Shown piece by piece: positions 2,798 to 18,305 of a stretch of 32,000 nt of DNA. The position numbers were made by a program, and so were the translations under genes. The notes under the pieces were generated by a model that worked only from the letters and a program-made list of their open reading frames with translations, was not told the origin of the DNA and searched no databases. The stretch comes from an uncultured Eubacteriales bacterium (GTDB taxonomy: Bacteria; Bacillota; Clostridia; TANB77; SIG350), in contig CAZFOR010000003.1 in the NCBI GenBank assembly GCA_964520895.1, forward strand, positions 21,823-53,822, in the 5' to 3' direction. The stretch's first letter is position 1. Each line of letters begins with the position of its first letter.

Positions 2798-3301
2798 TTA
2801 TTGAGCAACAGCACTAGTAATATCACTTTCTATACTATCTACAATTTTCTTTTTTTCTTTTTTCTTATATGTTCCATTTATTAATTGAGGAACATATGTA
2901 ATTACTTTATAAAATAATAGTTTTAATTTTTTACCAAATAAATAACTTTTTCTAAGCTTTCTTGTAGGTGTTAATGAATCGCTTTTCTTTGAAATTACTA
3001 ATTCATTTTTTTCTACAACAAAAGAATAATTATGACCTTCGTTATTATCCCAATTAGATTTATCATCTTTGAAACAACAATTGAACAAATCAGTATTTGG
3101 TATATCTATTTCAACTTCATATCCTACATCTGTTTTTGTCATTTCTATTTCAGATACATCTGACCATAATAGGCCATATCCATAATGTATAAATACTCTT
3201 TCTGCACCATTTAGAAATAATGTTCCACAATATGAAATTTTTGTTTTTGAATTTTCAACTATTTTATCATTACTAAAAAATATATTTCTATTTAATTCCA
3301 T
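2798..3301 (-). CDS. Hypothetical protein with a carbohydrate-binding-module-like domain (CBM25/53-like)
   Basis: 167-aa ORF with RBS AGGAGTG. The motif SNWDNNEGHNYSF after a beta-rich segment is typical of starch/glycan-binding modules. The C-terminus is Lys-rich. Confidence 0.45.
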   Translation of the reverse strand: MELNRNIFFSNDKIVENSKTKISYCGTLFLNGAERVFIHYGYGLLWSDVSEIEMTKTDVGYEVEIDIPNTDLFNCCFKDDKSNWDNNEGHNYSFVVEKNELVISKKSDSLTPTRKLRKSYLFGKKLKLLFYKVITYVPQLINGTYKKKEKKKIVDSIESDITSAVAQ

Positions 3302-3584
3302 TATTTACACTCCTTAATAATAAGTTTTATCTTTTGCTACACACATTATATTATTTTATTGTATAAACTTCAAGTCTTTTTTATAAAAAAGTAGTATTTT
3401 TGTAAAAAATAATATAATTGTAATAATATTGTAATATTTTACATGTTTTAATTATAATATTTTGTATAAAATTGTTAAGAAGTATCAAGATAAAAATACA
3501 ATTTATATCAAAAATCATTAACAATTATATACAAACAAACATAATATATATTAAGCATTAGCTAAAATATATTAGGAGGTAGTT

Positions 3585-4052
3585 ATGGAATTTGATAAAG
3601 GGATATGTCCAATAGTTGATATTGATGGAGCAATAGCATGTGGTAAGCAATTTGATTTAGATATTACATTACCAGAAGATAATAGAGATGTAATATATGG
3701 AATAGTAAGAGATTGTTATAAAGATCCAGTAAAAGATGCTGTTGTTAAATTAATTGAAGTTGTATATGAATGTGGTAAACAAGATAGAAGACCTGTTTCT
3801 CATACTTTTACAGACTGTGAAGGAGAATTTGTATTTGGTCCACTTTGTAAAAATAAGCAATATGAAATACAGATATGGGTAAATAAAGTTAATCATGCGA
3901 AAGTTTGTGCAAAATGTGAAAGAGATGGAGAATGTTTAAAAGGAATAAAGATGGATTGCAAAGATTTTAATCAATGTAATAAATGTATGCATAGAAGTGA
4001 TGAAGTAATAGAAGAATTACAACAAGATGAGATATTAGAAATTACAGAATAG
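3585..4052 (+). CDS. Cys-rich protein with a CarboxypepD_reg-like beta-sandwich core
   Basis: Strong RBS AGGAGG. IYGIVRD...PVKDAVVKLIEV...TDCEGEFVFGPL...YEIQIW fits the carboxypeptidase-regulatory-like fold pattern. It has 12 Cys, including the C-terminal CAKCERDGEC...CKDFNQCNKC, and an acidic tail. Confidence 0.55.
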   Translation: MEFDKGICPIVDIDGAIACGKQFDLDITLPEDNRDVIYGIVRDCYKDPVKDAVVKLIEVVYECGKQDRRPVSHTFTDCEGEFVFGPLCKNKQYEIQIWVNKVNHAKVCAKCERDGECLKGIKMDCKDFNQCNKCMHRSDEVIEELQQDEILEITE

Positions 4053-4289
4053 AAAATAACTAAATAGAAATATAGGGGAATACTTGTTTAAAAAGGATAG
4101 GTATTTCTTTATTTTTATATAAATAACAGTATATATTATGTAAATAATTACAAACTGTTTACATTTAGAGGTTGATAACCATTTCCAAATAATGCTAAAA
4201 TTTATATGTAATACTTTTTATAATATATAATCAATCACAATAATTGTGAAAAGTTCAATGACAAAAATAAAAATATGGAGGGAAACAAA

Positions 4290-4412
4290 ATGACTTATTT
4301 AACACAAGGCTTAAAACAAAATATGAATTCAGTTGTAATGCCAAAATGGTACACATTTATGGTCTTATTTTGTTATACCTTTATATCAGTTTACATGACA
4401 TGGTTTATTTAA
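4290..4412 (+). CDS. 40-aa small hydrophobic peptide
   Basis: GGAGGG RBS lies 7 nt upstream of the ATG. Translation is MTYLTQGLKQNMNSVVMPKWYTFMVLFCYTFISVYMTWFI, with a single C-terminal TM. A strong terminator follows. It falls below the ORF-track cutoff. Confidence 0.4.
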   Translation: MTYLTQGLKQNMNSVVMPKWYTFMVLFCYTFISVYMTWFI

Positions 4413-4445
4413 TACTTAAATAAATTAATATGAATTTAAAAATTC

Positions 4446-4480
4446 AAGATGTGTTGATATAAAGTCAGCACATCTTTTTT
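4446..4480 (+). terminator. Rho-independent terminator
   Basis: AAGATGTGTTGA / TCAGCACATCTT stem (one G-U pair) with a 7-nt loop, followed by a T-run. Confidence 0.7.
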
Positions 4481-4510
4481 ATATATAAAAATAAAATTAT
4501 AAAGGAGTGT

Positions 4511-4999
4511 ATGAAAATGACTATTATCAATGTAAACAATTTGGTGAAGAACTATGAGACAAAAGAGGCTGTAAAAAACATTTCATTTTCAATTAATGAA
4601 GGTGAAGTAGTAGCATTTATTGGACCAAATGGGGCAGGAAAAACAACAACCGTTAAAATTCTTACAGGCATTTTACATCCGACTAGTGGAAATGCTCAGG
4701 TTTGTGGAATTATACCTTGGGAAAAAAGAATGAAACTAGGGTATAATATTGGATGTTTGTTTGGACAAAAAAGTCAATTAAATCAAGCTCTTCCAGTTAT
4801 AGATAGCTATATTCTTCTAGGAGCAATATATGATATAGATAAGGAAGAGTTAATGAAAAGAATTGATGAGTATGCAACATATTTTGGTGTCAAAAAACTT
4901 ATAACTAAAAAAGCAAGTTATAATTGTGCTAGAGAAAAATATTTTTCAAATTTAAAAAAGTTTATTAAATGGAGTAATTATAATCCAATTAATTGTTGA
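4511..4999 (+). pseudogene. ABC transporter ATP-binding protein, 5' fragment only
   Basis: Walker A (GPNGAGKTT) and the Q-loop region (LFGQKSQL) are present. The ABC-like sequence stops near aa 133. There is no LSGGQ signature, Walker B or H-loop. The remaining about 30 codons are unrelated read-through into the next promoter. Confidence 0.75.
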
Positions 5000-5024
5000 C
5001 ATAATTCTGAAATGATGATATAAT
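4996..5024 (+). promoter_or_regulatory. Consensus sigma-A promoter for the rSAM/peptide cassette
   Basis: TTGACA (4996-5001), a 17-nt spacer, then TATAAT (5019-5024). It lies 60 nt upstream of the 5085 start. Confidence 0.6.
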
Positions 5025-5084
5025 AAGCGAAATTGTAAATATTTTTTTAATTGACTTAAAAATTTTTTAAGGAGGTAATGTGTT

Positions 5085-6194
5085 ATGGTAACGAGAGATC
5101 CTAATACCAAAGTAAAAACGCTGATGTTAACAGTGACAGAATCGTGCAATTTGTGTTGCGTTTATTGTTATGAACATAATAAGACTGCAAATGCAATGAG
5201 TTTTGAGACAGCTAAACGGATAATTGATGAAGAATTTATGGCAGATGATGGGTTTGAAGCAATTGAAGTTCAGTTTTTTGGTGGTGAGCCATTTGTTGAA
5301 TTTGAATTAATGAAGCAAGTTCATGATTATGTATATTCACTTGAGACGAAAAAAGAAAGAATTTGTTTTGCAATAACAAATGGTACATATGTACATGGCG
5401 AAATTCAGAAATGGTTAAGAAAACACAAAGACACATTTTGCGTTGGATTAAGCTTAGATGGAACAAAGAAAATGCATGATATGAACAGAAGGAAACATAA
5501 TGGAGAAGGTTCTTTTGAGGATATTGACATTGGCTTTTATAAAGAGTGTTGGCCTTTCCAAGACATCAAAATGACAGTTTCAAGACAAACTTTACCATAT
5601 CTTGCAGAAGGCATCATGTATATTCAAAATTTGGGATTTAATGGTGCAGGAAGTTTTGCTTATGGAATTGACTGGGATTTGGAGAAAGATTTGCCAATTT
5701 TGGAAAAGCAACTTGACATACTTGTCGATTATTACATTAAAAATCCTAGTGTTTCAGTTGCAAAGATTATTTCTATGCCAATTCAAAATATTGAATATAC
5801 CTTGGAAGAAGGATTTAAATGGTGTGGTGCAGGAACACAGATGAAATGTTATGATGTTAATGGAAATGTATTTCCATGTCAATTTTTTATGGGATTGACA
5901 ATAGGAGAACTGTCCAAAATCAACGAAAATGTTTTTCAACAAAAAGATGTGAAACTTGTAGATGACAAATGTGCTAGTTGTCCTTTGTATTCCATATGTC
6001 CAACTTGTTATGGTGTAAATTACGCTGAATCGGGTAATCTTTATGAAAGAGATGATGCACATTGTGAAATAAACAAGAGAATAATCCTTGCTAATGCAAA
6101 GATACAGTATCACAAGATAACAGCAAAAGATCAAATAACGGTGGATGATTATTATATTCTCAAAGCAATAGAGAATATCAATAATTTTCTATAA
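5085..6194 (+). CDS. Radical SAM/SPASM-domain peptide-modifying enzyme (anSME/QhpD-like, no N-terminal RRE)
   Basis: RBS AAGGAGG lies 9 nt upstream. CX3CX2C is at C21/C25/C28 (SCNLCCVYCYE), followed by FGGEPF and GTKKMHDMNRR. The C-terminal auxiliary-cluster cysteines are WCGAG..C-x10-C, CASCPLYSICPTC and HC. 369 aa. Confidence 0.9.
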   Translation: MVTRDPNTKVKTLMLTVTESCNLCCVYCYEHNKTANAMSFETAKRIIDEEFMADDGFEAIEVQFFGGEPFVEFELMKQVHDYVYSLETKKERICFAITNGTYVHGEIQKWLRKHKDTFCVGLSLDGTKKMHDMNRRKHNGEGSFEDIDIGFYKECWPFQDIKMTVSRQTLPYLAEGIMYIQNLGFNGAGSFAYGIDWDLEKDLPILEKQLDILVDYYIKNPSVSVAKIISMPIQNIEYTLEEGFKWCGAGTQMKCYDVNGNVFPCQFFMGLTIGELSKINENVFQQKDVKLVDDKCASCPLYSICPTCYGVNYAESGNLYERDDAHCEINKRIILANAKIQYHKITAKDQITVDDYYILKAIENINNFL

Positions 6195-6223
6195 ATTATT
6201 TTTTTTGAAAGGAGGAAAACATA

Positions 6224-6427
6224 ATGCTGAAACTTTCAAAAGACCAAATGGTATCTGTTGCTAACTTGATTAAAGCTAATTTGAAGTTTGAAAGTAGAAC
6301 TCCTATATTAGCGTCAGCGGGAGGATGCAATAGCTGCAATGGTGGATGCCAGAGTAGCTGTGGCGGATGCAGCGGAGGTTGTGGAACAGGTAATACTTGT
6401 GCAGTAACATTAGACATTTTTACATGA
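6224..6427 (+). CDS. Gly/Cys-repeat RiPP precursor peptide (67 aa)
   Basis: RBS GAAAGGAGG. The start is 29 nt after the rSAM stop. The 34-aa leader has no Cys and ends ILASAGG. The core is CNSCNGGCQSSCGGCSGGCGTGNTCAVTLDIFT, with 7 Cys. A hairpin terminator follows. Confidence 0.8.
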   Translation: MLKLSKDQMVSVANLIKANLKFESRTPILASAGGCNSCNGGCQSSCGGCSGGCGTGNTCAVTLDIFT

Positions 6428-6479
6428 TGCACATTACCTAATTACTAATGATTAATTAATCTATATTAGATTAAAGTAA

Positions 6480-6517
6480 AAAACTCAGTTATTTCGAAAG
6501 ATATAACTGAGTTTTGC
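6480..6517 (+). terminator. Hairpin terminator after the precursor gene
   Basis: AAACTCAGTTAT / ATAACTGAGTTT 12-bp stem with a 10-nt loop and a short T-run. Confidence 0.6.
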
Positions 6518-6597
6518 TATATATGAAAGTAAATTAAATATATGAATTATAACATTGTAAAACAAATAATATATTAAGTTGTTATATTTAAATATAT

Positions 6598-6692
6598 AAC
6601 TCAAAAAATAAATCAGCTATATCTATTGATATAACTGATTTATTTATGGAGCCGGCTGCCGGAATTGAACTGGCGACCTACTGATTACAAGT
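6598..6692. repeat. Direct repeat copy 1: orphan 3' 46 nt of tRNA-Thr plus 49 nt of its downstream terminator region (att-like)
   Basis: It matches 8740-8835 base for base, except for one A fewer in the A-run after AACTC. It ends abruptly inside the anticodon loop sequence (…GATTACAAGT). Confidence 0.9.
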
Positions 6693-6876
6693 TGATATAT
6701 ACATATTCTAGTATTTATTATTATTTCTATAAATGTAGTGTTATGCGGTATTTGTTCTATTGTATATCTTGTCTAGTAGTATATTTTATTGCTATATTTT
6801 TTTATTTATGTGAGCAAAATGTGAGTAAAAAGTTATAAAATTCTATTAGGTGTTAATAATATGTATTGATTTATAC

Positions 6877-6931
6877 TCGAAAAGTAGTCGAAAAGTACTC
6901 GAAAAGTACTCGAAAAGTAGTCGAAAAGTAT
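6877..6931. repeat. Five contiguous copies of an 11-bp unit TCGAAAAGTA(G/C/T)
   Basis: Read directly: TCGAAAAGTAG TCGAAAAGTAC TCGAAAAGTAC TCGAAAAGTAG TCGAAAAGTAT, followed by a short AAGTAT/ATACTT hairpin. Confidence 0.85.
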
Positions 6932-6949
6932 TGAAAAAAAATACTTGTT

Positions 6950-7309
6950 GTGATATATATTTTTTTGAGGTTAAATTATATAGAAAGTTATGGTACTGGA
7001 ATAGAAAAAATTATAGATAGTTATAAAGAGAAAGTTTTAAAACCTAAATTTGATATAACAGAAAACAGTTTTGTTCTAACATTATTTAATACAAATAAAA
7101 CTGCAACTATTAAAAACACAAAAAGTAAAGATAAAGAAGAAATAATTATCGAATATATAAAAGAAAATGGTAGTATTACTAGAATAGAAGTTCAGAAAAT
7201 ACTTGGATTAGAAAAAGCTATGTCAAATAAGGTGCTGACTAATATGTGTAAAGAAAATAGGATTAAAAGAGAAGGTAATGGTAGAAGTATTAAGTATATA
7301 ATATATTAA
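6950..7309 (+). pseudogene. 3' fragment of an AlbA_2/HATPase_c_4-type ATP-binding transcriptional regulator (wHTH C-terminus only)
   Basis: FLRLNYIESYGTGIEKIIDSYKE...ITENSFVLTL...IIEYIKENGSITRIEVQKILGL...NGRSIKY matches only the last 110 or so residues of proteins that are normally about 400-480 aa. It has no plausible RBS or ATG (GTG in the track). Confidence 0.6.
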
Positions 7310-7322
7310 AGGAGAGTGCCTA

Positions 7323-8339
7323 ATGAAAAAATGTAGTTTATGTGGAAGAAAAATATCACAAGTCAATTATAATTTTGGTTTAGGGTGTTTAAAAAAATCT
7401 TGTAAATTGATAGATATAAATGCGGTTAAAAATATAAAAGGAGAAAATACATTAAATAATAGTATTTGTAAATTATGTAATAAACAAGATTTAAATAAAA
7501 AACAGAAGGAGTTATTAACTAATAGATATTTAACATATAATATACTTAATAAAGTTGAACTTGATTATTATACTTCTATGAAAGATAAAGTAAACCAAGA
7601 TATAAAGATAATTAATAAAAATACTAATAAAAAAGATTTAAAAAGCTTTGATGTGATTACACTTAAACAAGCATTTGAAATATACAGATTATATAATAAA
7701 TATAAAAAAATAAGAGATAAAAGAGAAGAAGTAGATTTTGATTTTATTCAAAATACATCTTTTGACACACTAAGATTTGCTTTTAGTACATATTATAATA
7801 GAAAAACATATCTTAATGGGGTAACAGCTGATGGACAATATATTGTGTGGGAGTTGGGAATAATATATTTGAAGTCTACGTCAAAAAAGTGTTCAGCAAC
7901 TCTTTTAAAACACTCATTACAAGAAAGTCCAGATGATTTACTAATAGAAAGTGGAGAATTTATAACTAAGATAAAAAAGGATATATATTTTAAGAAAAAA
8001 ATAAATGAAATAATAGAAAAGAATAAAGAACAAGATTATTTAAATGAAACTGGCTATATAGATTTTAATATTGGAGATTTGTTTTTTGCCTTACATAGTG
8101 CAAAAATAAATATTAAAGGAAATAAAGTTAATAACATATGGAAACTTAATATAATAATAACAGATAGATATGATTTTACAGATTTCAAAAAACTAAGTGA
8201 ATATATGGATAGCAATATATTTAAATCAATTTTTACGAGTACAATTAATAATATGGCAATGATATCTACAAGTTCTAATGTTATAAATGAGTATAATGTT
8301 ACAATAAAATTTTCAATAGATTGGAGTGATAATCTATGA
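7323..8339 (+). CDS. Hypothetical 338-aa protein with an N-terminal Cys-pair (zinc-ribbon-like) region
   Basis: RBS AAGGAGAG. Cysteine pairs are C4-x2-C7, C22-x4-C27 and C49-x2-C52. There is no signal peptide. I do not recognise the C-terminal domain (…GDLFFALHSAKINIKG…ITDRYDF…). Confidence 0.7.
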   Translation: MKKCSLCGRKISQVNYNFGLGCLKKSCKLIDINAVKNIKGENTLNNSICKLCNKQDLNKKQKELLTNRYLTYNILNKVELDYYTSMKDKVNQDIKIINKNTNKKDLKSFDVITLKQAFEIYRLYNKYKKIRDKREEVDFDFIQNTSFDTLRFAFSTYYNRKTYLNGVTADGQYIVWELGIIYLKSTSKKCSATLLKHSLQESPDDLLIESGEFITKIKKDIYFKKKINEIIEKNKEQDYLNETGYIDFNIGDLFFALHSAKINIKGNKVNNIWKLNIIITDRYDFTDFKKLSEYMDSNIFKSIFTSTINNMAMISTSSNVINEYNVTIKFSIDWSDNL

Positions 8340-8692
8340 AGAAAAATGTAATTAAATTAATCAAAATATTATCTATATACTTATTATCTTTATTAATATT
8401 TGTAATAATAGCAAATACGAGAGGTGATGAATTCATACAATATATAGTAAATACAAGTGAACCTCAATCATATGATACTGACACAATAAATCCACTTTGG
8501 TGTTTTGGACCAATTGTACATGCAGGAGTTATTCATTTTATTTTAGGAGTAATACTAGCTATATATGCTAAGGTTAGTAAGGAATTTGATAATTTAACAA
8601 AATCAATTATATACATATTTCCTATATTAACTTTTTTTCTTACTATACCTATTGGAGTACTAATTTTATATATTGTTTCAATATTTCAGTAG
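8336..8692 (+). CDS. Small integral membrane protein (118 aa, about 3 TM)
   Basis: Its start overlaps the upstream stop (ATGA), which implies translational coupling. Hydrophobic segments are IYLLSLLIFVIIA, VIHFILGVILAIYA and IFPILTFFLTIPIGVLILYIV. Confidence 0.7.
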   Translation: MKKNVIKLIKILSIYLLSLLIFVIIANTRGDEFIQYIVNTSEPQSYDTDTINPLWCFGPIVHAGVIHFILGVILAIYAKVSKEFDNLTKSIIYIFPILTFFLTIPIGVLILYIVSIFQ

Positions 8693-8739: not shown

Positions 8740-8865
<126 letters not shown>

Positions 8866-9258: not shown

Positions 9259-12200
9259 ATGGGAGACATCATAAAATATAATTTAACAAATCAACAAAAA
9301 GCTTTATATAACATAGATAAAGTGTATAAAAATAGTAAAATAAACAATATATCTTTTTGGTTAGAAATAAACCATGTAATAAATTTTGAACTATTAACAA
9401 AAGCGATAAATGTTATTGTAGAAAAAAATGATAATTTTAGATTTCAATTTGTAGAAGAAAACGGAGAAATATATCAATATGCAAGAGAGTATACATATCA
9501 AAACTTTGAAATTTTAGATGTTGCAAACTCAAAAGAATTAGAACAGAAAATAAAAGAATATACATTTGATTTAGAAAATGATAATTTATGTGTATTTACA
9601 TTATTTAGATATCCAGATGGTAAAGGCGGTATTGTTGCTTCAGCACATCATCAACTTGGTGATGCGTGGACAATGGGAATATTTATAAATGAAGTATTAG
9701 ATATTTATCATAAATTGTTAATTAATGAAGATGTATCAGATTTAACATATCCTTCATATTTAGAATATGTTAATACACAAAATGAATATATTCAATCTGA
9801 AAAATATATAAAAGATAAAGAATATTGGGAAGAAGTTTTTTCAAATAATATAGAAAAGCTGTCATTTAAAGAAGAGAGTTTTGATATTAATGCAATTAGA
9901 GAAGAATATGAAATTAACGAAGAAATATTAAAAGATATTAGAAGTTTTTGTACTGAAAATAAAATTTCTGAGTATGTATTTTTTCTATCAGTCTTTTGCA
10001 TATATTTAGGCAAGTTAAAAGGATTAAACAATTTTGTAATAGGTAATCCAATATTAAATAGATCTAATTTTAGAGAAAAATGTACATCAGGGTTATTTAT
10101 GTCTACAATGCCATTTGTAGTTAATATAGATGATGAATTAAACTTTATAGATTATGCAAAAAACATAGCATCTGGGCAAATGAAAATGTATAAACATTTG
10201 AAATATCCAGATTATGAAATAACAAAATATTTTAATCAAAAAAACAATACACATGGACCAATTTATGATTTCGTTTTTTCATATCAAAATGCAAAAACAG
10301 ATAAAGATACTGTAATGTTTGAAACAAAGACTAGATGGATGGAAGCAGGCCAGCAACTAAATTCATTAATGATACACTTTAAAGATACAGAAGATACAGG
10401 AAGACCAATTTTAATTTATGATTATTTATCAGAAATTTTTACTGGGCAAGATATTGATATTTTAAATAAAAGAATAATGGAAATATGTAAACAAGTATTA
10501 ACTAATATACAATTAGCTGATATAGAGATTATAACAAGTGAAGAAAAACAATATTTGGTAAATAATTGTAATAATACATATTTTGAATATGATAGAAATA
10601 GCACGATTGTGAGTAGGTTAGAAAAGACAATTAGTGAGACAAACAATGAAATAGCATTAATATATGGTAATGAAAAATTATCATATAGTGATTTAAATAA
10701 ACAGGCAAATAAACTAGCTAGGTATATGCAAAAATTAGGTGTAAAACAAAATGACATTATACCTATTATTGATAGTCGTAGTATTGATATGATAATTGGT
10801 ATGTTTGCAATTATGAAATTAGGGTGTGCATATTTACCAATTGATATAGAGTATCCAAAAGATAGAATTGAATATATTATATCAGATGCAAGTGCCAAAT
10901 TAGTTTTAACTAAAAAAGAGTATAAAGATAGATTTGAAACTAGTGGTAAAAAAATATTTATAGATACAAATGAATATGAAGATGAGCAAGATACAAATTT
11001 AAATACTAATATTTTACCTGATGATTTAGCGTATTTAATATATACATCAGGTTCTACAGGTAAGCCAAAAGGTGTAATGTTATCACATAGAAATGTTGTT
11101 AATTTTACTCAAGGTACTAGTAATATTATTTGTTTTAAAAATAAAACAATTGTATCTGTAACAACAATTTCTTTTGATATATTTGTTTTAGAATCATGGC
11201 TAAGTTTAATAAAAGGTGCAAAAGTGGTTATTGCAAATGAAAATGAGCAAAATATTTCACATAATTTAAATAAACTATGTTTAGAAAATAATGTTCAAAT
11301 GATACAAACAACACCTTCAAGAATGAAGTTATTAATTAGTGATAATGAAAATATACAGTTTATTAAAAATATGACAGATATAATGATAGGTGGAGAGGCT
11401 GTACCATATAAATTAATTGAGGATTTAAGAAAAATTACTAATGCACGAATTTTTAATATGTATGGACCAACTGAAACTTGTGTATGGTCAACAATAAAGG
11501 AATTAACAAATGATAATATTGTTACAATAGGTAAGCCTATTGCAAATACAACTGTGTATGTATTAAATAAAAATAAAAGATTATGTCCAATTGGAGTTGC
11601 AGGTGATTTGTATATTGGTGGAGATGGTGTATGCAAAGGATATTACAAAAAACAAGAATTAACAAATGAGAAGTTTATCAAAAACATATATAATAAAGAT
11701 GAAATTATTTATGAAACAGGTGATATTGCAAAATGGGATAATAATGGTAACTTAATCTGTTTAGGAAGAAATGATTTTCAAATTAAAATAAATGGACATA
11801 GAATTGAAATAGAAGAAGTTGAAAACACTATATTTAAATATGGAGATATAACAGAGGTAGCTGTTGTATCAATAAATAATCAAGCATTATATGGATATTA
11901 TACAAGTAATAAACCTATTGATAATACTAAATTAAGAGTATTTGTGGCAGAGAAGCTACCAACATATATGGTACCAACGAAATTTATACAAATAGATGAT
12001 ATGCCAAAAACACCAAATGGTAAAATAGACAGGAAAAAAATTATTGCATTTAGTAATAATACTCAGTGTGAGCAAGAAGAAATAATTGAGCCAAGAAACG
12101 AAATAGAAGACATATTATTTAAAGCATTTACTCAAATAATAGATAAGAAAATTAGTATAGATAAACCATTTTTTGATTATGGATTTGATTCATTATCAAT

Positions 12201-13524
12201 TATAAAAGTGCAAACATTATTATTAAAAAATAAATGGAATATTACTTTACAAGATTTTTATAAATATCCTACAATTGAACAATTAGCAAAACATATTTTA
12301 AATAAATATGAAAATGGTTCTAAGTACGATAATGAATATGAGGATTTACCAACAATTAGGGAAAATATAAATAATATTTATATAAGTGGTAATAAAAATA
12401 ATTACAAAAATATTTTACTTACCGGTTGTACAGGTTTTATAGGGATACATGTATTACAAGAACTTCTATTAAATACTGATGCAAATATTTATTGTATTAT
12501 TAGAAGTAAAAACGACCTAAGTCCTATTTACAGATTAGAGGAAAAATTAGATTTTTACTTTAATGGTAAATATAAAGAATTTATTGGGAATAGAATTATT
12601 GTTATTGAAACAGATATTACAAAAGATGTTAATATACAAGATAAAATACAAGATATTGATTTAGTAATACATTCAGCAGCACTTGTAAAACATTATGGTG
12701 ATGTTGAGTTATTTAAAAAGGTTAATATACAAGGTACACAAAATATAATAAATATATGTAAAAAATACAATAGTGTTTTGTGTTATTTATCATCACTTAG
12801 TGTATCAGGAAATTATTTAGTTAAACAAGATAATAGGGATAAAGAATTTACTGAAGATAATTTATATATTGGACAAAGATATCAAGACAATGTCTATGTA
12901 TATAGTAAATTCGAGTGTGAAAAACTTATATATAATGAAATTAAAAATGGATTAAAAGCATCAGTATATAGAATTGGTATAGTATCAGGTAGAGCTACTG
13001 ATGGTTTAATGCAACAAAATATATCTGAAAATGCTTTTTATAACAGGATTAAAGCAATTGTTGATTTAAAAAATATATCACAAAATATGTTTGATCAAAG
13101 TGTAGAGTTTACACCAGTTGACTTGTTAGCACAAGCATTAGTTAAATTAGTTCAAATACCAGAAAGTATTAATAAGGTATATCATTTGTATAATGATGAA
13201 TTGTTTAGCATTAAAGATGTTTTACAAGCATTAAGTTTATTAGATATTAATATTAATGTACTTTCTAGCAAAGAGTTTGATGGATTAATTAAACAAATAT
13301 CATCAAATATTAATGAAAATAGCAAACTTGGGGGAGTTATTAATGATTTCTATAATACAGATGAAGGTATTGGATTAAATTATGATTTCACTATTAATAT
13401 AAGAGCTGATAAGACGAAGAAATACTTAGAAAAATTAGGCTTTAAATGGATTAATAGTAAGTTTGAGAAAGAGATTTATTTAAGAAAGATATTTAGATAT
13501 ATGAGAAATGTAAATTATATATAA
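9259..13524 (+). CDS. Single-module non-ribosomal peptide synthetase, C-A-T-R (terminal thioester reductase)
   Basis: C domain: HHQLGDA at aa 130-136. A domain: LAYLIYTSGSTGKPKGV, FDIFVLE, NMYGPTE, GDLYIGGDGVCKGY and PKTPNGKIDRKK. T domain: FFDYGFDSLS. R domain: LLTGCTGFIG (Rossmann) and YVYSK (YxxxK). 1421 aa. Confidence 0.95.
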   Translation: MGDIIKYNLTNQQKALYNIDKVYKNSKINNISFWLEINHVINFELLTKAINVIVEKNDNFRFQFVEENGEIYQYAREYTYQNFEILDVANSKELEQKIKEYTFDLENDNLCVFTLFRYPDGKGGIVASAHHQLGDAWTMGIFINEVLDIYHKLLINEDVSDLTYPSYLEYVNTQNEYIQSEKYIKDKEYWEEVFSNNIEKLSFKEESFDINAIREEYEINEEILKDIRSFCTENKISEYVFFLSVFCIYLGKLKGLNNFVIGNPILNRSNFREKCTSGLFMSTMPFVVNIDDELNFIDYAKNIASGQMKMYKHLKYPDYEITKYFNQKNNTHGPIYDFVFSYQNAKTDKDTVMFETKTRWMEAGQQLNSLMIHFKDTEDTGRPILIYDYLSEIFTGQDIDILNKRIMEICKQVLTNIQLADIEIITSEEKQYLVNNCNNTYFEYDRNSTIVSRLEKTISETNNEIALIYGNEKLSYSDLNKQANKLARYMQKLGVKQNDIIPIIDSRSIDMIIGMFAIMKLGCAYLPIDIEYPKDRIEYIISDASAKLVLTKKEYKDRFETSGKKIFIDTNEYEDEQDTNLNTNILPDDLAYLIYTSGSTGKPKGVMLSHRNVVNFTQGTSNIICFKNKTIVSVTTISFDIFVLESWLSLIKGAKVVIANENEQNISHNLNKLCLENNVQMIQTTPSRMKLLISDNENIQFIKNMTDIMIGGEAVPYKLIEDLRKITNARIFNMYGPTETCVWSTIKELTNDNIVTIGKPIANTTVYVLNKNKRLCPIGVAGDLYIGGDGVCKGYYKKQELTNEKFIKNIYNKDEIIYETGDIAKWDNNGNLICLGRNDFQIKINGHRIEIEEVENTIFKYGDITEVAVVSINNQALYGYYTSNKPIDNTKLRVFVAEKLPTYMVPTKFIQIDDMPKTPNGKIDRKKIIAFSNNTQCEQEEIIEPRNEIEDILFKAFTQIIDKKISIDKPFFDYGFDSLSIIKVQTLLLKNKWNITLQDFYKYPTIEQLAKHILNKYENGSKYDNEYEDLPTIRENINNIYISGNKNNYKNILLTGCTGFIGIHVLQELLLNTDANIYCIIRSKNDLSPIYRLEEKLDFYFNGKYKEFIGNRIIVIETDITKDVNIQDKIQDIDLVIHSAALVKHYGDVELFKKVNIQGTQNIINICKKYNSVLCYLSSLSVSGNYLVKQDNRDKEFTEDNLYIGQRYQDNVYVYSKFECEKLIYNEIKNGLKASVYRIGIVSGRATDGLMQQNISENAFYNRIKAIVDLKNISQNMFDQSVEFTPVDLLAQALVKLVQIPESINKVYHLYNDELFSIKDVLQALSLLDININVLSSKEFDGLIKQISSNINENSKLGGVINDFYNTDEGIGLNYDFTINIRADKTKKYLEKLGFKWINSKFEKEIYLRKIFRYMRNVNYI

Positions 13525-13535
13525 GGAGATGAATT

Positions 13536-15563
13536 ATGTTGAATTTTTTAAAGAAACATAAATATAGTATAAGGGTATTATTTGATTATAATTTAATTAT
13601 AATATTAGTGGTATTAGCACTATATTTTACAGTTCCAACAATTATGAATTATTTGCCAGAAACAATTAATACACAGTTTGATGTAATGATGTCATTTATT
13701 TCATATAGACAACAGTATTTAATAATAATGATGCTTTTCTTAATAATTACAAATCCAATATTATTAATTTTATTAAAGAGTATATTTAAACTGGAAAATG
13801 AAATATCTACAAATGATGATTGGAAAGAAAATAAAGAGTTAATAAGTAAAGTAAGGAAAGATTGTTACAAAATACCATATACTATATTTTTAATTCAGCT
13901 TTCTATTGCAGTAATAGTAGTACTTGGAATATTAGTAACAACAGGTAGTCATGATTGGTTAATGATAATTAAAGTATCACTATTAGTATTAACATTTGAT
14001 GTTTTAGCAACAGTTATGTCATTTATTCTTTCAAAAAGGGTGTTTACAAAAATATTAGTAACGCTGCCATATGATGAAAATAATAAATGGTTTAGAATAT
14101 CATTAAAAAGTAAAATGTTAATGTTGATATTACCTATGTTATTAATGGCACTACTTTTTACATCATTAGTTGGATATACTAGAATATCATATGAAAAAGG
14201 TAATATATTACATGATGCATATGAAAAGTTTTTATTTGATATTTCTGAAAAATCACAAGATGGATTAACAGATGAGCAAATAAATAATGAATTAAATAAT
14301 ATTGAATTTATTAATAAAAATCATAATAGAGTTATTATTTATGAAGATGAAACATATAAAAGTATAGATGATAAAGGAGTAACAGATTTTATTATAAAAT
14401 ATACATTACAGATTTCAAACAAATATGATGGGAAAATAATGGATAGTTATGGTAAAGACATACAAGGTGTGATGAAAAGAGTATATAACGTTGATAAGCA
14501 GCAATATTGTTATATAGGTGTAATATATGACTTGTCATCACCAGGTGCATTAGCATTTTTGCTAGTGTCATCAATGTTGTTCTTTATACTAAACTTTATT
14601 GTATTAAGAAGTGTATCAAATGAAATTACAAATGGTGTAACAATGTCATTAGAAAGACTTCAAGAAATATCTGAAAATAGAAATGATTATACAAAAAGTA
14701 AACATAGTTTAAAAGTTATATCAAATGATGAAATGGGTGAACTTGCAATTGTATTTAATAAGATTCAGGAATTAACTAATGAATATATTAATGAGATACA
14801 TGATGGTCAAGAAACACTTATGGAAAAAGATAGACTTGCATCACTTGGACAGTTGATGGGAGGTATAGCACATAACTTAAAAACACCTATTATGTCAATA
14901 TCAGGTAATCTGCAAGGACTTCAAGATTTGATTACAGAATATAATGTATCTGTTGGTGATCCAGAAGTAACAACTGATGACCATAAAGCAATTGCAAATG
15001 ATATGCAAGAATTGGTAGATAAAACTAGAATTCATTTATCATATATGTCAGATGTAATTACAGCTGTTAAAGGTCAAGCAGTTCAATTAGACTCATCTGA
15101 AACACAGATATTTGGGGCATTAGAAGTTGCAAGTAGAATTGAGATATTAATGAAACATGAGCTTAAAAGTGCATTAGTTGAAATGAAAGTAAATGTTGAA
15201 GAAGAGGCAAAAACAGGATATATCAAAGGTGATATAAATAGTTTAGTTCAAGTATTAAATAACTTAGTTCAAAATGCTATATATGCAAGTAAAGATGCTG
15301 AAAATAAAGTTATATATTTTGATATAAGCAAACAAGATAATAAAATATGTTTTAAAGTTCAAGATAATGGTTGTGGTATACCACAAAATATACAAGAAAA
15401 ATTATTTAAAGAAATGGTTACTACAAAGGGTAAAAACGGAACAGGCTTAGGGTTATATATGTCATATTCAACAATTAGAGGAAAGTTTAATGGTACATTT
15501 GAATTTGAATCAAAAGAAGGAGAAGGTACAACATTCTATATTAAAATACCTGTAAGTCAGTAA
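13536..15563 (+). CDS. Multi-TM sensor histidine kinase (orphan)
   Basis: RBS AAGGAG overlaps the NRPS stop. There are about 6 N-terminal TM helices plus an extracytoplasmic segment and a HAMP-like linker. The H-box is GGIAHNLKTPI. N, G1 and G2 boxes are NLVQNAIYAS, QDNGCGIP and GTGLGLYMS. Confidence 0.9.
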   Translation: MLNFLKKHKYSIRVLFDYNLIIILVVLALYFTVPTIMNYLPETINTQFDVMMSFISYRQQYLIIMMLFLIITNPILLILLKSIFKLENEISTNDDWKENKELISKVRKDCYKIPYTIFLIQLSIAVIVVLGILVTTGSHDWLMIIKVSLLVLTFDVLATVMSFILSKRVFTKILVTLPYDENNKWFRISLKSKMLMLILPMLLMALLFTSLVGYTRISYEKGNILHDAYEKFLFDISEKSQDGLTDEQINNELNNIEFINKNHNRVIIYEDETYKSIDDKGVTDFIIKYTLQISNKYDGKIMDSYGKDIQGVMKRVYNVDKQQYCYIGVIYDLSSPGALAFLLVSSMLFFILNFIVLRSVSNEITNGVTMSLERLQEISENRNDYTKSKHSLKVISNDEMGELAIVFNKIQELTNEYINEIHDGQETLMEKDRLASLGQLMGGIAHNLKTPIMSISGNLQGLQDLITEYNVSVGDPEVTTDDHKAIANDMQELVDKTRIHLSYMSDVITAVKGQAVQLDSSETQIFGALEVASRIEILMKHELKSALVEMKVNVEEEAKTGYIKGDINSLVQVLNNLVQNAIYASKDAENKVIYFDISKQDNKICFKVQDNGCGIPQNIQEKLFKEMVTTKGKNGTGLGLYMSYSTIRGKFNGTFEFESKEGEGTTFYIKIPVSQ

Positions 15564-16855: not shown

Positions 16856-17005
16856 ATTAAAGAAAAATTAAACTTAAAAATATGGTTTAATTTTTTTCTA
16901 TTATTCTATGTTCTATTAGCATAATTAAGTTCTGAAAAATCACAAAAACAAGATAATTAAGTTGATAAAGTAATGTATTATTATGGTAATAAAGGAGATG
17001 CTTTT

Positions 17006-18305
17006 ATGGAAAGAAAAATAATGAAAGATTTAATAAAATGGAAACAAAATAAAAGTGAGAGATTACCATTAATAGTATATGGTGCAAGGCAAGTTGGAAA
17101 AACATATATATTAAAAGAATTTGCCCAAAGACATTATACTGATTATGTGTATATTAATTTTGAGCAAATGGATTATGCTAAAACAATATTTGATAAAGAA
17201 TTAATACCAGATAAAATAATTGTTATGTTAGAAAGATATTTAAAGAAAAAAATTATACCTGAGCAAACATTAATTATATTTGATGAAATACAAATTTGTG
17301 AAAGAGCATTAACATCTTTAAAGTATTTTGCAGAACAAGCAAGTGAATATCATATTATATGTGCTGGTAGTTTTTTAGGTGTTGCTATAAATAGAGAAAA
17401 ATTTTCATTTCCAGTTGGAAAAATTGAAATGATTAATTTATATCCTTTGGATTTTGAGGAGTTTTTATGGGAAATGGGAGAAAAAGATTTAGCAGATAAT
17501 ATTAAATTAAGTGTACAAAAAAGGAAACCATTGTCTATTTTTGAACATGAAGATGCATTAGAATTATATAGGACATATCTAATAACAGGTGGAATGCCTG
17601 CAATAGTTCAAGATTATTCAATAAATAAAAATTTTGATAATACAAGACAAAAACAAAATGATATTATAAATTCATATATTACAGATATGGCAAAATATGC
17701 AACAGCTAGTGAAACTACTAAAATTAGAACAGCTTATGACTCATTACCATTACAAATAGCAAAAGAAAATAAAAAGTTTCAATATAAACTTATAAAAAAA
17801 GGTGCAAGTAGTTCAAATTTTGGGGAAGCTATAGATTGGTTAGAATTAGCAAAAGTGGTATTAAAATGTAAAAAAATTGAGCAAATAAAAAAACCATTGG
17901 AAGGTTATATGGATTTAAGTAGTTTTAAATTGTATATGGGTGATATAGGGTTACTTACATATAAATCAAAAATTTCACCAGAAGACATATTATTAGAGTC
18001 AAAAGAAATTAATGAATTTAGAGGACGGTTTAACTGAAAGCTATGTAGCACAAGCTTTAATTACTAATAGATATGATTTGTATTATTGGGTATCAGAAGG
18101 AAAAGCAGAAATTAATTTTATAATAATGAAGGATAATGAGATAATACCTGTTGAAGTAAAAGCTAATGACCATGTAAGAGCTAGAAGCTTATCAGTATAT
18201 GTACAAAGATTTAAACCTAAGTATAGTATAAGGATTTCTAGTAAAAACATAGGGTTTGATAATAATATATTATCAATACCTTTGTATGCTGTATTTTGTA
18301 TATAA
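17006..18305 (+). pseudogene. AAA+/DUF4143-type ATPase, paralogue of 521-1813, frameshifted
   Basis: MERKIMKDLIKWKQ...GARQVGKTY...IIFDEIQ runs parallel to the intact copy. The frame breaks at about 18026 (…NEFRG | GLTESYVAQAL…). The two track ORFs 16973-18037 and 18012-18305 together make one protein. Confidence 0.8.

Follow-up and report, generated by a model that had tools for sequence, protein, structure and literature searches.

A two-gene cassette of a radical SAM/SPASM maturase and a cysteine-repeat precursor, most likely for a sulfur-crosslinked peptide

In contig CAZFOR010000003.1, a gene for a 369-aa radical S-adenosylmethionine (SAM)/SPASM enzyme is followed by a small open reading frame (ORF) for a 67-aa cysteine-rich peptide. 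What do these two genes make together? We analyzed the 32,000-nt stretch at contig positions 21,823-53,822; this whole stretch is called the window, and all coordinates refer to it unless a locus is named. The original prediction described the pair as a minimal cassette for a ribosomally synthesized peptide with post-translational modification (RiPP), with an enzyme that lacks the RiPP recognition element (RRE). We favor, with a probability of roughly 60%, the reading that the pair is a self-contained two-gene RiPP cassette, in which a CteB/PapB-like SPASM maturase without an RRE acts on a leader-core precursor and gives a thioether product. The parts of this reading differ in strength. Synteny gives good support to a RiPP cassette that pairs an RRE-less SPASM maturase with a Cys-repeat precursor. 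That the 67-aa peptide is the substrate of the enzyme is highly probable. By analogy with characterized enzymes, the chemistry would be Cys-to-carbon thioethers, one per Cys, and here our confidence is only somewhat above even.

The enzyme gene and a precursor gene are conserved side by side

A protein search with the enzyme returned 1340 homologues at E ≤ 1e-3. The best 120 of these share 41-69% identity with it and are mostly 354-393 aa long (outliers, 256 and 432 aa); all but one truncated homologue cover 85-100% of the query. The closest homologue (P0002, 69% identity) lies on a contig that stops 46 nt past the gene, too early to show a precursor. The pair is part of a large family without a specific curated model or name. 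For example, WP_011460830.1 of the cultured Desulfitobacterium hafniense is labeled merely "radical SAM protein" in RefSeq, like other members; a 60-aa ORF lies upstream of it.

A genome scan with one genome per species gave at least 457 relatives confirmed by tblastn, which may include other radical SAM families. The synteny sample consisted of the best 80 loci of these relatives (all E ≤ 2e-68, 35-57% identity). The 80 loci come from Clostridia, Bacilli/Erysipelotrichaceae, Bacteroidales, Coriobacteriaceae, Brocadia, Anaerolineae/Caldilinea, Spirochaetia, Chlorobium, Acidobacteriota, Verrucomicrobia/Kiritimatiellales, Thermodesulfovibrionales and one Methanomethylophilaceae archaeon, the last as a metagenome-assembled genome (MAG). 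The hosts of the family are strictly anaerobic bacteria of many phyla plus this archaeal MAG, and the family is common in gut Clostridia and Bacteroidales.

A hidden Markov model (HMM) built from obvious neighbors detected a co-directional small precursor ORF in 62 of the 80 loci. Nearly all of these ORFs lie no more than about 250 nt from the enzyme gene, and a few are as far as 1.8 kb away. At about 11 of the other 18 loci, shorter or divergent Cys-rich ORFs are found at the same place. The downstream position of the precursor gene had been proposed as a distinguishing feature of the window cassette. In the family, however, the gene order is variable: the precursor is upstream of the enzyme gene in 28 cases and downstream in 28. 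Two or three precursor copies are present at several loci (L007, L058, L070 and L078). At L070 (Spirochaetia), positions 5222-6019 hold three near-identical precursor genes in tandem; at L078, positions 2999-3931 hold three differing precursor genes, one of which has 20 Cys in CxxxC register.

All-against-all clustering of the neighboring ORFs at the 80 loci revealed no third conserved gene. The next most frequent neighbor cluster, leucine-rich-repeat-like proteins, occurs at 9 loci, and ABC exporters occur at 7. No conserved protease, exporter or immunity gene was found beside the family enzymes at the 80 loci. Thus, the predicted combination of a radical SAM/SPASM enzyme and a Cys-rich precursor as a minimal two-gene cassette was borne out by the adjacent precursor and the lack of a third conserved gene.

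Two further loci were noted on mobile DNA. L089 (MT836223.1, "Bacteriophage sp." from human feces) carries at 22-2087 a fragment of a tyrosine recombinase, a homologue of 393 aa (33% identity) and a 62-aa precursor with Cxxx repeats. The Phocaeicola massiliensis plasmid OY725981.1 carries a homologue with 38% identity to the window enzyme. Mobile elements may carry the cassette in Bacteroidales.

Organization of the cassette in the window

The features of the cassette are as follows.

4996..5024, + strand: promoter-like site, TTGACA-17 nt (with TG)-TATAAT; consensus match 12/12, with an extended -10 TG.
5069..5075, + strand: ribosome-binding site of the enzyme gene, AAGGAGG; read directly, 9 nt ahead of the ATG at 5085.
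5085..6194, + strand: RRE-less radical SAM/SPASM peptide maturase, 369 aa, with C21/C25/C28 and the SPASM cysteines C247, C265, C296, C299, C305, C308 and C327; assigned by family models, homologue alignment, the CteB match and AlphaFold2/Foldseek.
6207..6215, + strand: ribosome-binding site of the precursor gene, GAAAGGAGG; read directly, 8 nt ahead of the ATG at 6224.
6224..6325, + strand: precursor leader, residues 1-34, MLKLSKDQMVSVANLIKANLKFESRTPILASAGG; aligns with the family leader consensus MFKLSKELLAKLKEAVSEEELTPAAAVLAAASG.
6326..6427, + strand: precursor core CNSCNGGCQSSCGGCSGGCGTGNTCAVTLDIFT and stop codon; compared with TIGR04117 (21 bits, cut-off 50), with the core of the relative P0122 (SGCNSCNGSCQGSCGGCSQGCGSSSTCAVTIKIF) and with the family core statistics.
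6475..6518, + strand: terminator-like hairpin followed by UUUUG; dG -18.1 kcal/mol, z -6.6; none of 200 shuffled sequences folds equally well.

As read from these signals, the enzyme and precursor genes would form a single unit with its own putative promoter, two ribosome-binding sites and a terminator-like hairpin. The putative promoter was the top-scoring site of a sigma-70 consensus scan within 4000-7500, and the enzyme start is 60 nt further downstream. The hairpin was missed by the consensus scan because its stem contains few G-C pairs. The gap between the two genes is 29 nt and holds GAAAGGAGG. All the elements that had been read at first inspection were present: the SAM-cluster triad C21/C25/C28, the 29-nt gap, the ribosome-binding site and the 67-aa ORF, with a 34-residue Cys-free leader that ends in ILASAGG and Cys at positions 35, 38, 42, 46, 49, 53 and 59.

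The pair was found identical on three other assemblies. The GC content is 32% in the cassette and 22-25% in the flanks. An Rfam scan of the window gave four tRNAs only, with no riboswitch upstream of the cassette.

The enzyme resembles CteB without its RRE

The enzyme carries CNLCCVYC (C21-x3-C25-x2-C28). Its SPASM cysteines are C247 (in WCGAG), followed by x12-G260-x4-C265, then C296-x2-C299-x5-C305-x2-C308 (CASCPLYSICPTC) and finally C327 in H326-C327. Ten Cys are invariant across 26 homologues, three for the radical SAM cluster and seven in the SPASM domain; the enzyme thus has ligands for three [4Fe-4S] clusters. The SPASM block was correctly recognized in the original prediction. However, its "C-x10-C" element had counted C255-x9-C265, and C255 is not kept in the 26-homologue alignment; the canonical element is C247-x12-G-x4-C265. 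The seven SPASM cysteines line up with those of CteB and satisfy the seven-Cys SPASM motif (CX9-15GX4C ... CX2CX5CX2-3C ... C). Therefore, one iron of auxiliary cluster I would have no protein ligand, as in CteB.

CteB was also the top match in the sequence comparison with solved structures (79.6 bits when the enzyme sequence alone was used and 132 bits with the family profile), and anSME was next (70 bits). The match covers CteB residues 92-451, namely CteB minus its RRE; the first ~90 residues of CteB have no counterpart in the enzyme. An AlphaFold2 model of the enzyme, based on the 26-sequence alignment, had a pLDDT of 92.4 and a pTM of 0.90. In this model, the first barrel strand begins at residue 10 and there is no N-terminal domain. 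At the other end, the model and the NCBIfam matches agree that the 369-aa enzyme stops after the SPASM helices. Foldseek ranked CteB first (E 2.6e-20, TM-score 0.72), followed by anSME (9e-16, 0.69), ChlB (9e-14, 0.70) and TigE; EpeE, an epimerase, also shares the fold.

The Pfam scan, which covered 25 of the 33 window ORFs of at least 90 aa, detected only Radical_SAM and Fer4_12 in the enzyme (PF04055, 36.6 bits, cut-off 29.5). The top NCBIfam model was that of the PapB-family ranthipeptide maturase (NF047865, 168.4 bits, cut-off 340), and the second was that of the CXXX-repeat-target maturase (TIGR04115, 144.1 bits, cut-off 350). The SCIFF maturase model ScfB (TIGR03974) gave 103 bits (cut-off 425) with an alignment that begins at model position 92. 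The PapB, TIGR04115 and SCIFF maturase matches are full-length alignments. Among 26 family members tested, the TIGR04115 scores were near 160 bits or less, and the E-values for the PapB model were 1.7e-49 or larger.

The starting points of the model alignments show what is absent from the enzyme. The models of RRE-bearing enzymes (ScfB, QhpD, CcpM, the nif11 maturase, HxsB and CefB) align with it only from model positions 74-92, whereas those of RRE-less enzymes (TIGR04115, DynA, YhhB, AmcB, GrrM and anSME) align from model positions 1-8. The enzyme ORF cannot be extended upstream, because the ORF list takes the first start codon that follows a stop. The prediction of an enzyme without an RRE is upheld by this ORF limit, by the barrel strand from residue 10 (pLDDT 92) and by the lack of a PqqD-like protein among the window ORFs scanned. 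The N-terminal RRE domain has been lost, or was never present. In contrast, the description of the enzyme as "anSME/QhpD rather than CteB-type" is not supported: CteB minus its RRE is the nearest solved structure by both sequence and fold. QhpD has an N-terminal extension that the enzyme lacks, because QhpD aligns only from its residue 91.

The precursor is a Cys-free leader followed by a Cys-repeat core

A sequence search with the 67-aa peptide returned only itself and one relative; therefore, synteny and an HMM of our own were used. An HMM of the homologous precursors, built without the window sequence, found the window ORF at E 1.5e-6, and this was its sole window match among 18,109 stop-to-stop segments. 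This match is carried by the core together with the first residues of the peptide. One known peptide is 58% identical to the window precursor. A chance ORF was considered and rejected on the basis of the window-free HMM match, the identical pairs in other assemblies and this 58%-identical peptide.

An NCBIfam scan of the peptide gave only TIGR04117 (21 bits, E 2.7e-4, cut-off 50) and TIGR03601 (20 bits, E 8e-4, cut-off 35); neither a SCIFF peptide model nor TIGR04114 matched. The TIGR04114 cut-off (20 bits) was passed by two of nine family precursors tested.

The repeat itself was analyzed in 66 distinct family cores. These contain 3-20 Cys (median, 6), and 292 of the 368 Cys-to-Cys steps (79%) have i+4 spacing. 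Within the C-x-x-x unit, position +1 is variable, +2 is Gly in 49% and +3 is Ser, Thr or Gly in 62%. The repeat consensus is C-x-G-[S/T], and the consensus of the whole precursor is MFKLSKELLAKLKEAVSEEELTPAAAVLAAASG-C..(G)SCSGTCSGTC..., with a helix-like leader N-terminus, MF[KQ]L[ST]xEL. Thus, the repeat of the family is Cys-x3-Cys and not the "GGC-type repeat" first proposed. The window core is less regular than the family norm (Cys spacings 3, 4, 4, 3, 4 and 6). It has no Asp or Glu between C35 and C59; including it, 15 of the 66 cores have neither residue between the first and last Cys. The subclade of the window shares the pattern G-C-[PN]-[NS]-C-N-G-x-C ... T-C-[AV]-[VS]-[IT] and a short hydrophobic tail. 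Its conserved N-G-x-C element is reminiscent of the NxxC beta-thioethers, a resemblance that we take as a lead only.

Double-glycine processing had been suggested from the GG at the leader end. However, this GG is found in the window sequence only. In relatives, the leader ends in SG, QG, IG, RG or without Gly (closest relatives, ASGC, AQGC, EIGC and RRGC). Neither a C39 peptidase nor an intact exporter was detected in the window ORFs scanned, and neither is conserved at the 80 loci. Thus, the suggestion finds no support.

Surroundings of the cassette in the window

Upstream of the cassette, ORF 4511-4999 (162 aa) encodes a truncated ABC-transporter ATPase, which matches ABC_tran positions 1-102 of 137 and ends where the cassette promoter begins. 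No permease or remainder of the ABC transporter is found downstream of it. Possibly, the cassette took the place of the remaining part of a transporter operon.

Directly downstream of the cassette is a 2.1-kb insertion flanked by a perfect 90-nt direct repeat (6603-6692 and 8746-8835), which consists of the 3' 46 nt of tRNA-Thr(TGT) and a downstream hairpin. A Logan contig of the same sequence ends within this repeat. The insertion has no integrase. Its ORFs are 6950-7309 (a truncated fragment with RecG-C/winged helix-turn-helix similarity), 7323-8339 (no family) and 8336-8692 (membrane-like, 118 aa); just upstream of the first, at 6863-6938, an 11-nt tandem unit (TACTCGAAAAG / TAGTCGAAAAG) is present in about 6-7 copies. 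The insertion looks like a decayed or trans-mobilized tRNA-targeting element.

Further away, and unrelated to the cassette, a single-module nonribosomal peptide synthetase with a terminal reductase (9259-15563; C-A-T-R, 1421 aa) directly follows a tRNA Lys-Glu-Thr cluster and precedes a histidine kinase; it adds a second small biosynthetic gene to the window. An AAA_14/DUF4143 ATPase gene at 16973-18305 appears to be split into overlapping ORFs of 354 and 97 aa, probably by a frameshift, and an intact 430-aa paralogue is encoded at 521-1813. A 155-aa Cys-rich ORF at 3585-4052 gave a sub-threshold beta-sandwich match only.

Proposed reaction and points that weigh against it

We propose the following reaction for the cassette. 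The leader would first dock directly on the catalytic domain, for which ChlB is a precedent. The thiolates of the core Cys would then bind, one by one, to the open iron of auxiliary cluster I. This binding is proposed because only three protein Cys are conserved for the cluster, as in CteB, and for PapB a peptide Cys has been reported to be bound at auxiliary cluster I (AC1) during catalysis. Reductive cleavage of SAM at the C21/C25/C28 cluster would yield the 5'-deoxyadenosyl radical, which would take a hydrogen from a nearby residue in the same or next Cxxx unit. The carbon radical would combine with the bound sulfur to form a thioether (-2 Da). Repeated along the core, this cycle would give a string of small in-line rings. 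Small in-line rings have been described for the PapB/NxxcB/GggB group, and by this analogy they are probable here. A small residue (Gly, Ser, Thr or Asn) at position +2 or +3 probably serves as the acceptor. The acceptor is not, or not always, an Asp or Glu side chain, because the window core and other family cores, 15 of 66 in all, lack these residues between the cysteines. The product may have an intracellular role, or it may depend on machinery encoded elsewhere. SCIFF peptides offer a parallel: their system is a minimal two-gene cassette of anaerobes with no conserved protease or exporter, as is the present family.

Several points weigh against the thioether reading. The enzyme misses the curated NCBIfam cut-off of every named family. 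The thioether assignment depends on 23-30% sequence identity to characterized enzymes, and SPASM enzymes of similar fold carry out C-C and C-O bond formation, epimerization and oxidation. The acceptor is a guess, because PapB-type chemistry needs a carboxylate, which the window core lacks; and other outcomes are conceivable because the CxxxC spacing leaves few non-Cys acceptor positions. Moreover, the window leader was not significant in a leader-only HMM built without the window sequence. Therefore, the leader is tied to the family via intermediates (P0122, L001-L004, with L004 MLSLSKQELSMLEKK, and L085) and not by direct significance.

A more far-reaching view, which we regard as tentative and rather less probable than the thioether cassette as such, is that the family is a distinct RiPP class. 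Here, an RRE-less maturase would directly read a short N-terminal leader and modify every Cys of a Cys-x-Gly-Ser/Thr repeat with an uncatalogued linkage, and the product would be a rigid intracellular rod that is free of thiols or organizes metal, and not a secreted antibiotic. Candidate linkages are a continuous Cys-to-Gly/Ser alpha-thioether ladder and a crosslink between neighboring repeat units. If this were true, the occurrence in Clostridia, Bacteroidales, anammox Brocadia, Chlorobium, Spirochaetia, Acidobacteriota and a methanogen-related archaeon would suggest that the product serves anaerobes in some general physiological way.

Alternative explanations

The alternative that survives best, which we consider unlikely, keeps the cassette and the substrate and changes the chemistry, for example to oxidation of Cys to formylglycine or to dehydro residues, epimerization, C-C crosslinks, or a crosslink involving two Cys, with leftover thiols binding metal. 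The fold is compatible with such reactions, since anSME (oxidation), TigE (cyclopropylglycine), ChlB (cyclophane) and EpeE (epimerase) all share it. Function cannot be transferred to the enzyme by family because every named cut-off was missed. Obvious acceptors are few, as the 15 cores without Asp or Glu illustrate, and the lack of a conserved exporter would fit an intracellular metal- or redox-active product. However, the periodic Cys are the sole invariant feature of the core, suggesting that the reaction takes place at Cys. The seven-Cys SPASM domain with an open auxiliary cluster I matches the thioether-forming CteB and not the eight-Cys anSME. Furthermore, the enzymes of the top full-length matches (PapB, TIGR04115 and ScfB) mature Cys-rich peptides, and two of them form thioethers.

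It is improbable that the pair is an ordinary member of the catalogued CXXX-repeat system (TIGR04114/04115/04117/04119), even though TIGR04117 is the best model of the precursor, TIGR04115 is the second-best model of the enzyme over its full length and some family precursors exceed the TIGR04114 cut-off. The enzyme reaches 144 of the required 350 bits, and the 26 members tested are near 160 or below. A bona fide TIGR04115 protein, WP_012797095.1 of the Anaerococcus prevotii plasmid pAPRE01, reaches 487 bits but shares only 30% identity with the window enzyme. This 728-aa protein is a fusion with a TIGR04119 "CXXX repeat peptide maturase" domain as its C-terminal half; an ABC transporter is encoded downstream. 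The TIGR04119 domain is absent from the 369-aa enzyme, no such conserved neighbor is present at the 80 loci, and beyond enzyme and precursor no gene recurs in more than 9 of them. The small ORF upstream of WP_012797095.1 has a different leader and was not matched by the family precursor HMM. Thus, we place the window cassette outside the CXXX system, because the HMM cut-off was failed and the second maturase is missing from the cassette; a copy elsewhere in the genome is conceivable. At the pAPRE01 locus itself (L088, 204-6325; a conjugative plasmid), we noted the 728-aa radical SAM-TIGR04119 fusion, a 41-aa ORF, the ABC transporter and a class III lanthionine synthetase, LanKC; the locus is possibly a RiPP hybrid.

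Marginally less probable still is that the small ORF encodes an unmodified metallothionein-like or Fe-S/metal-binding peptide while the enzyme acts on something else. The Cys/Gly/Ser-rich core does resemble such peptides, and no protease or intact exporter was found in the window ORFs scanned or is conserved at the 80 loci. But the strict co-directional adjacency across phyla in both gene orders, and several precursor copies beside a single enzyme gene (L070 and L078), speak against this reading. A conserved Cys-free leader with a hypervariable core (3-20 Cys) is the signature of a RiPP precursor.

That the enzyme is an anSME and the small ORF incidental is effectively refuted. The two enzymes have the same length, both lack an N-terminal domain, and anSME is the second-best fold match. 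However, the anSME model TIGR03942 gave 68.6 bits (cut-off 349.45) over residues 16-147 only, and NF010321 gave 53 bits (cut-off 441) over residues 14-148. The SPASM domain has seven Cys and not eight. No sulfatase was found among the window ORFs scanned and no sulfatase-like cluster among the neighbors at the 80 loci, and the small ORF is conserved at 62 or more of these. A true anSME clade with an unconserved small ORF, which the original prediction had named as the outcome that would overturn it, is therefore not what we found. Equally refuted in effect is a heterocycloanthracin-type (thiazole/oxazole) precursor, because the weak TIGR03601 match is below its cut-off and driven by Cys/Gly/Ser composition, the Pfam scan of 25 of the 33 window ORFs of at least 90 aa detected no YcaO cyclodehydratase or dehydrogenase, and the conserved partner is a radical SAM enzyme.

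Significance of the family

Radical SAM/SPASM maturases are a major source of new peptide chemistry. In two large genome-mining surveys, candidates were picked by an RRE domain or a neighboring ABC transporter. Such filters would miss the present family because it has neither. A solved product would give a function to hundreds of anonymous genes and would reveal how a thioether-type enzyme that has no RRE recognizes a leader. The enzyme might then join PapB as a compact, leader-guided, iterative crosslinking tool for peptide engineering. The two-gene unit is small enough for a direct test in Escherichia coli.

Comparison with known systems

The known systems resemble the window cassette to different degrees. 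Auxiliary clusters of anSME are ligated by eight Cys, whereas seven are conserved here. Although anSME (PDB 4K36-4K39) shares the size, the domain order and the absence of an N-terminal domain, only its N-terminal radical SAM half aligns, and its partners are sulfatases. ChlB, a triceptide multiple-cyclophane synthase (PDB 9GM3/9GMC), is likewise an RRE-less radical SAM/SPASM maturase (~375 aa). It was crystallized with its precursor leader and thereby sets an example of leader binding in the absence of an RRE. However, it forms C-C cyclophanes on aromatic-x-basic motifs, shares only 15% identity with the window enzyme, and its precursor is unrelated.

In the CXXX-repeat system, which is predicted only, the Cys-x3 precursor, the weak TIGR04117 and TIGR04114 matches and the N-terminal radical SAM domain without an RRE are similar to the present pair; unlike it, the true member has the TIGR04119 fusion and the adjacent ABC transporter. 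No experimental or descriptive paper was found for the present family, nor for the canonical CXXX system. In 2022, a survey of IPR023867 enzymes described an uncharacterized three-gene cluster of a recombinase, a radical SAM enzyme and a repeated Asp-Cys peptide. L089 has the same arrangement of recombinase fragment, homologue and Cxxx-repeat peptide. By this resemblance, the cluster may overlap the Bacteroidales branch of the family. Thus, the proposal of an undescribed class stands in so far as no curated model names the family and no experimental paper was found, and it is weakened by the kinship to the CXXX-repeat and PapB families and by this possible overlap.

PapB and its peptide PapA (freyrasin, a ranthipeptide with six CX3D thioethers) share with the cassette the four-residue Cys period, and PapB is the top curated model; an in-line ring logic is plausible. 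PapB is described with an RRE and requires a carboxylate acceptor, either Asp/Glu or the C-terminus. PapB-type membership was rejected, given the score below the cut-off, the missing RRE and the lack of carboxylate acceptors between the cysteines of the window core. The SCIFF system of CteB (thermocellin; PDB 5WGG/5WHY) shares with it a minimal two-gene cassette, a Cys-rich core and a seven-Cys SPASM domain, and CteB is the nearest solved structure by sequence and fold. SCIFF membership was also rejected. The maturase is below the cut-off and has no RRE, and the peptide differs in its leader and in its periodic CxxxC core, which contrasts with the SCIFF motif; the gene order is variable. Judged by sequence comparison, the family appears to be a sister of the predicted CXXX-repeat family (TIGR04114/04115/04119) and of PapB. 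We propose that the system is a thioether-type variant of the radical SAM/SPASM RiPP pathways, and that it most likely makes a sulfur-crosslinked peptide.

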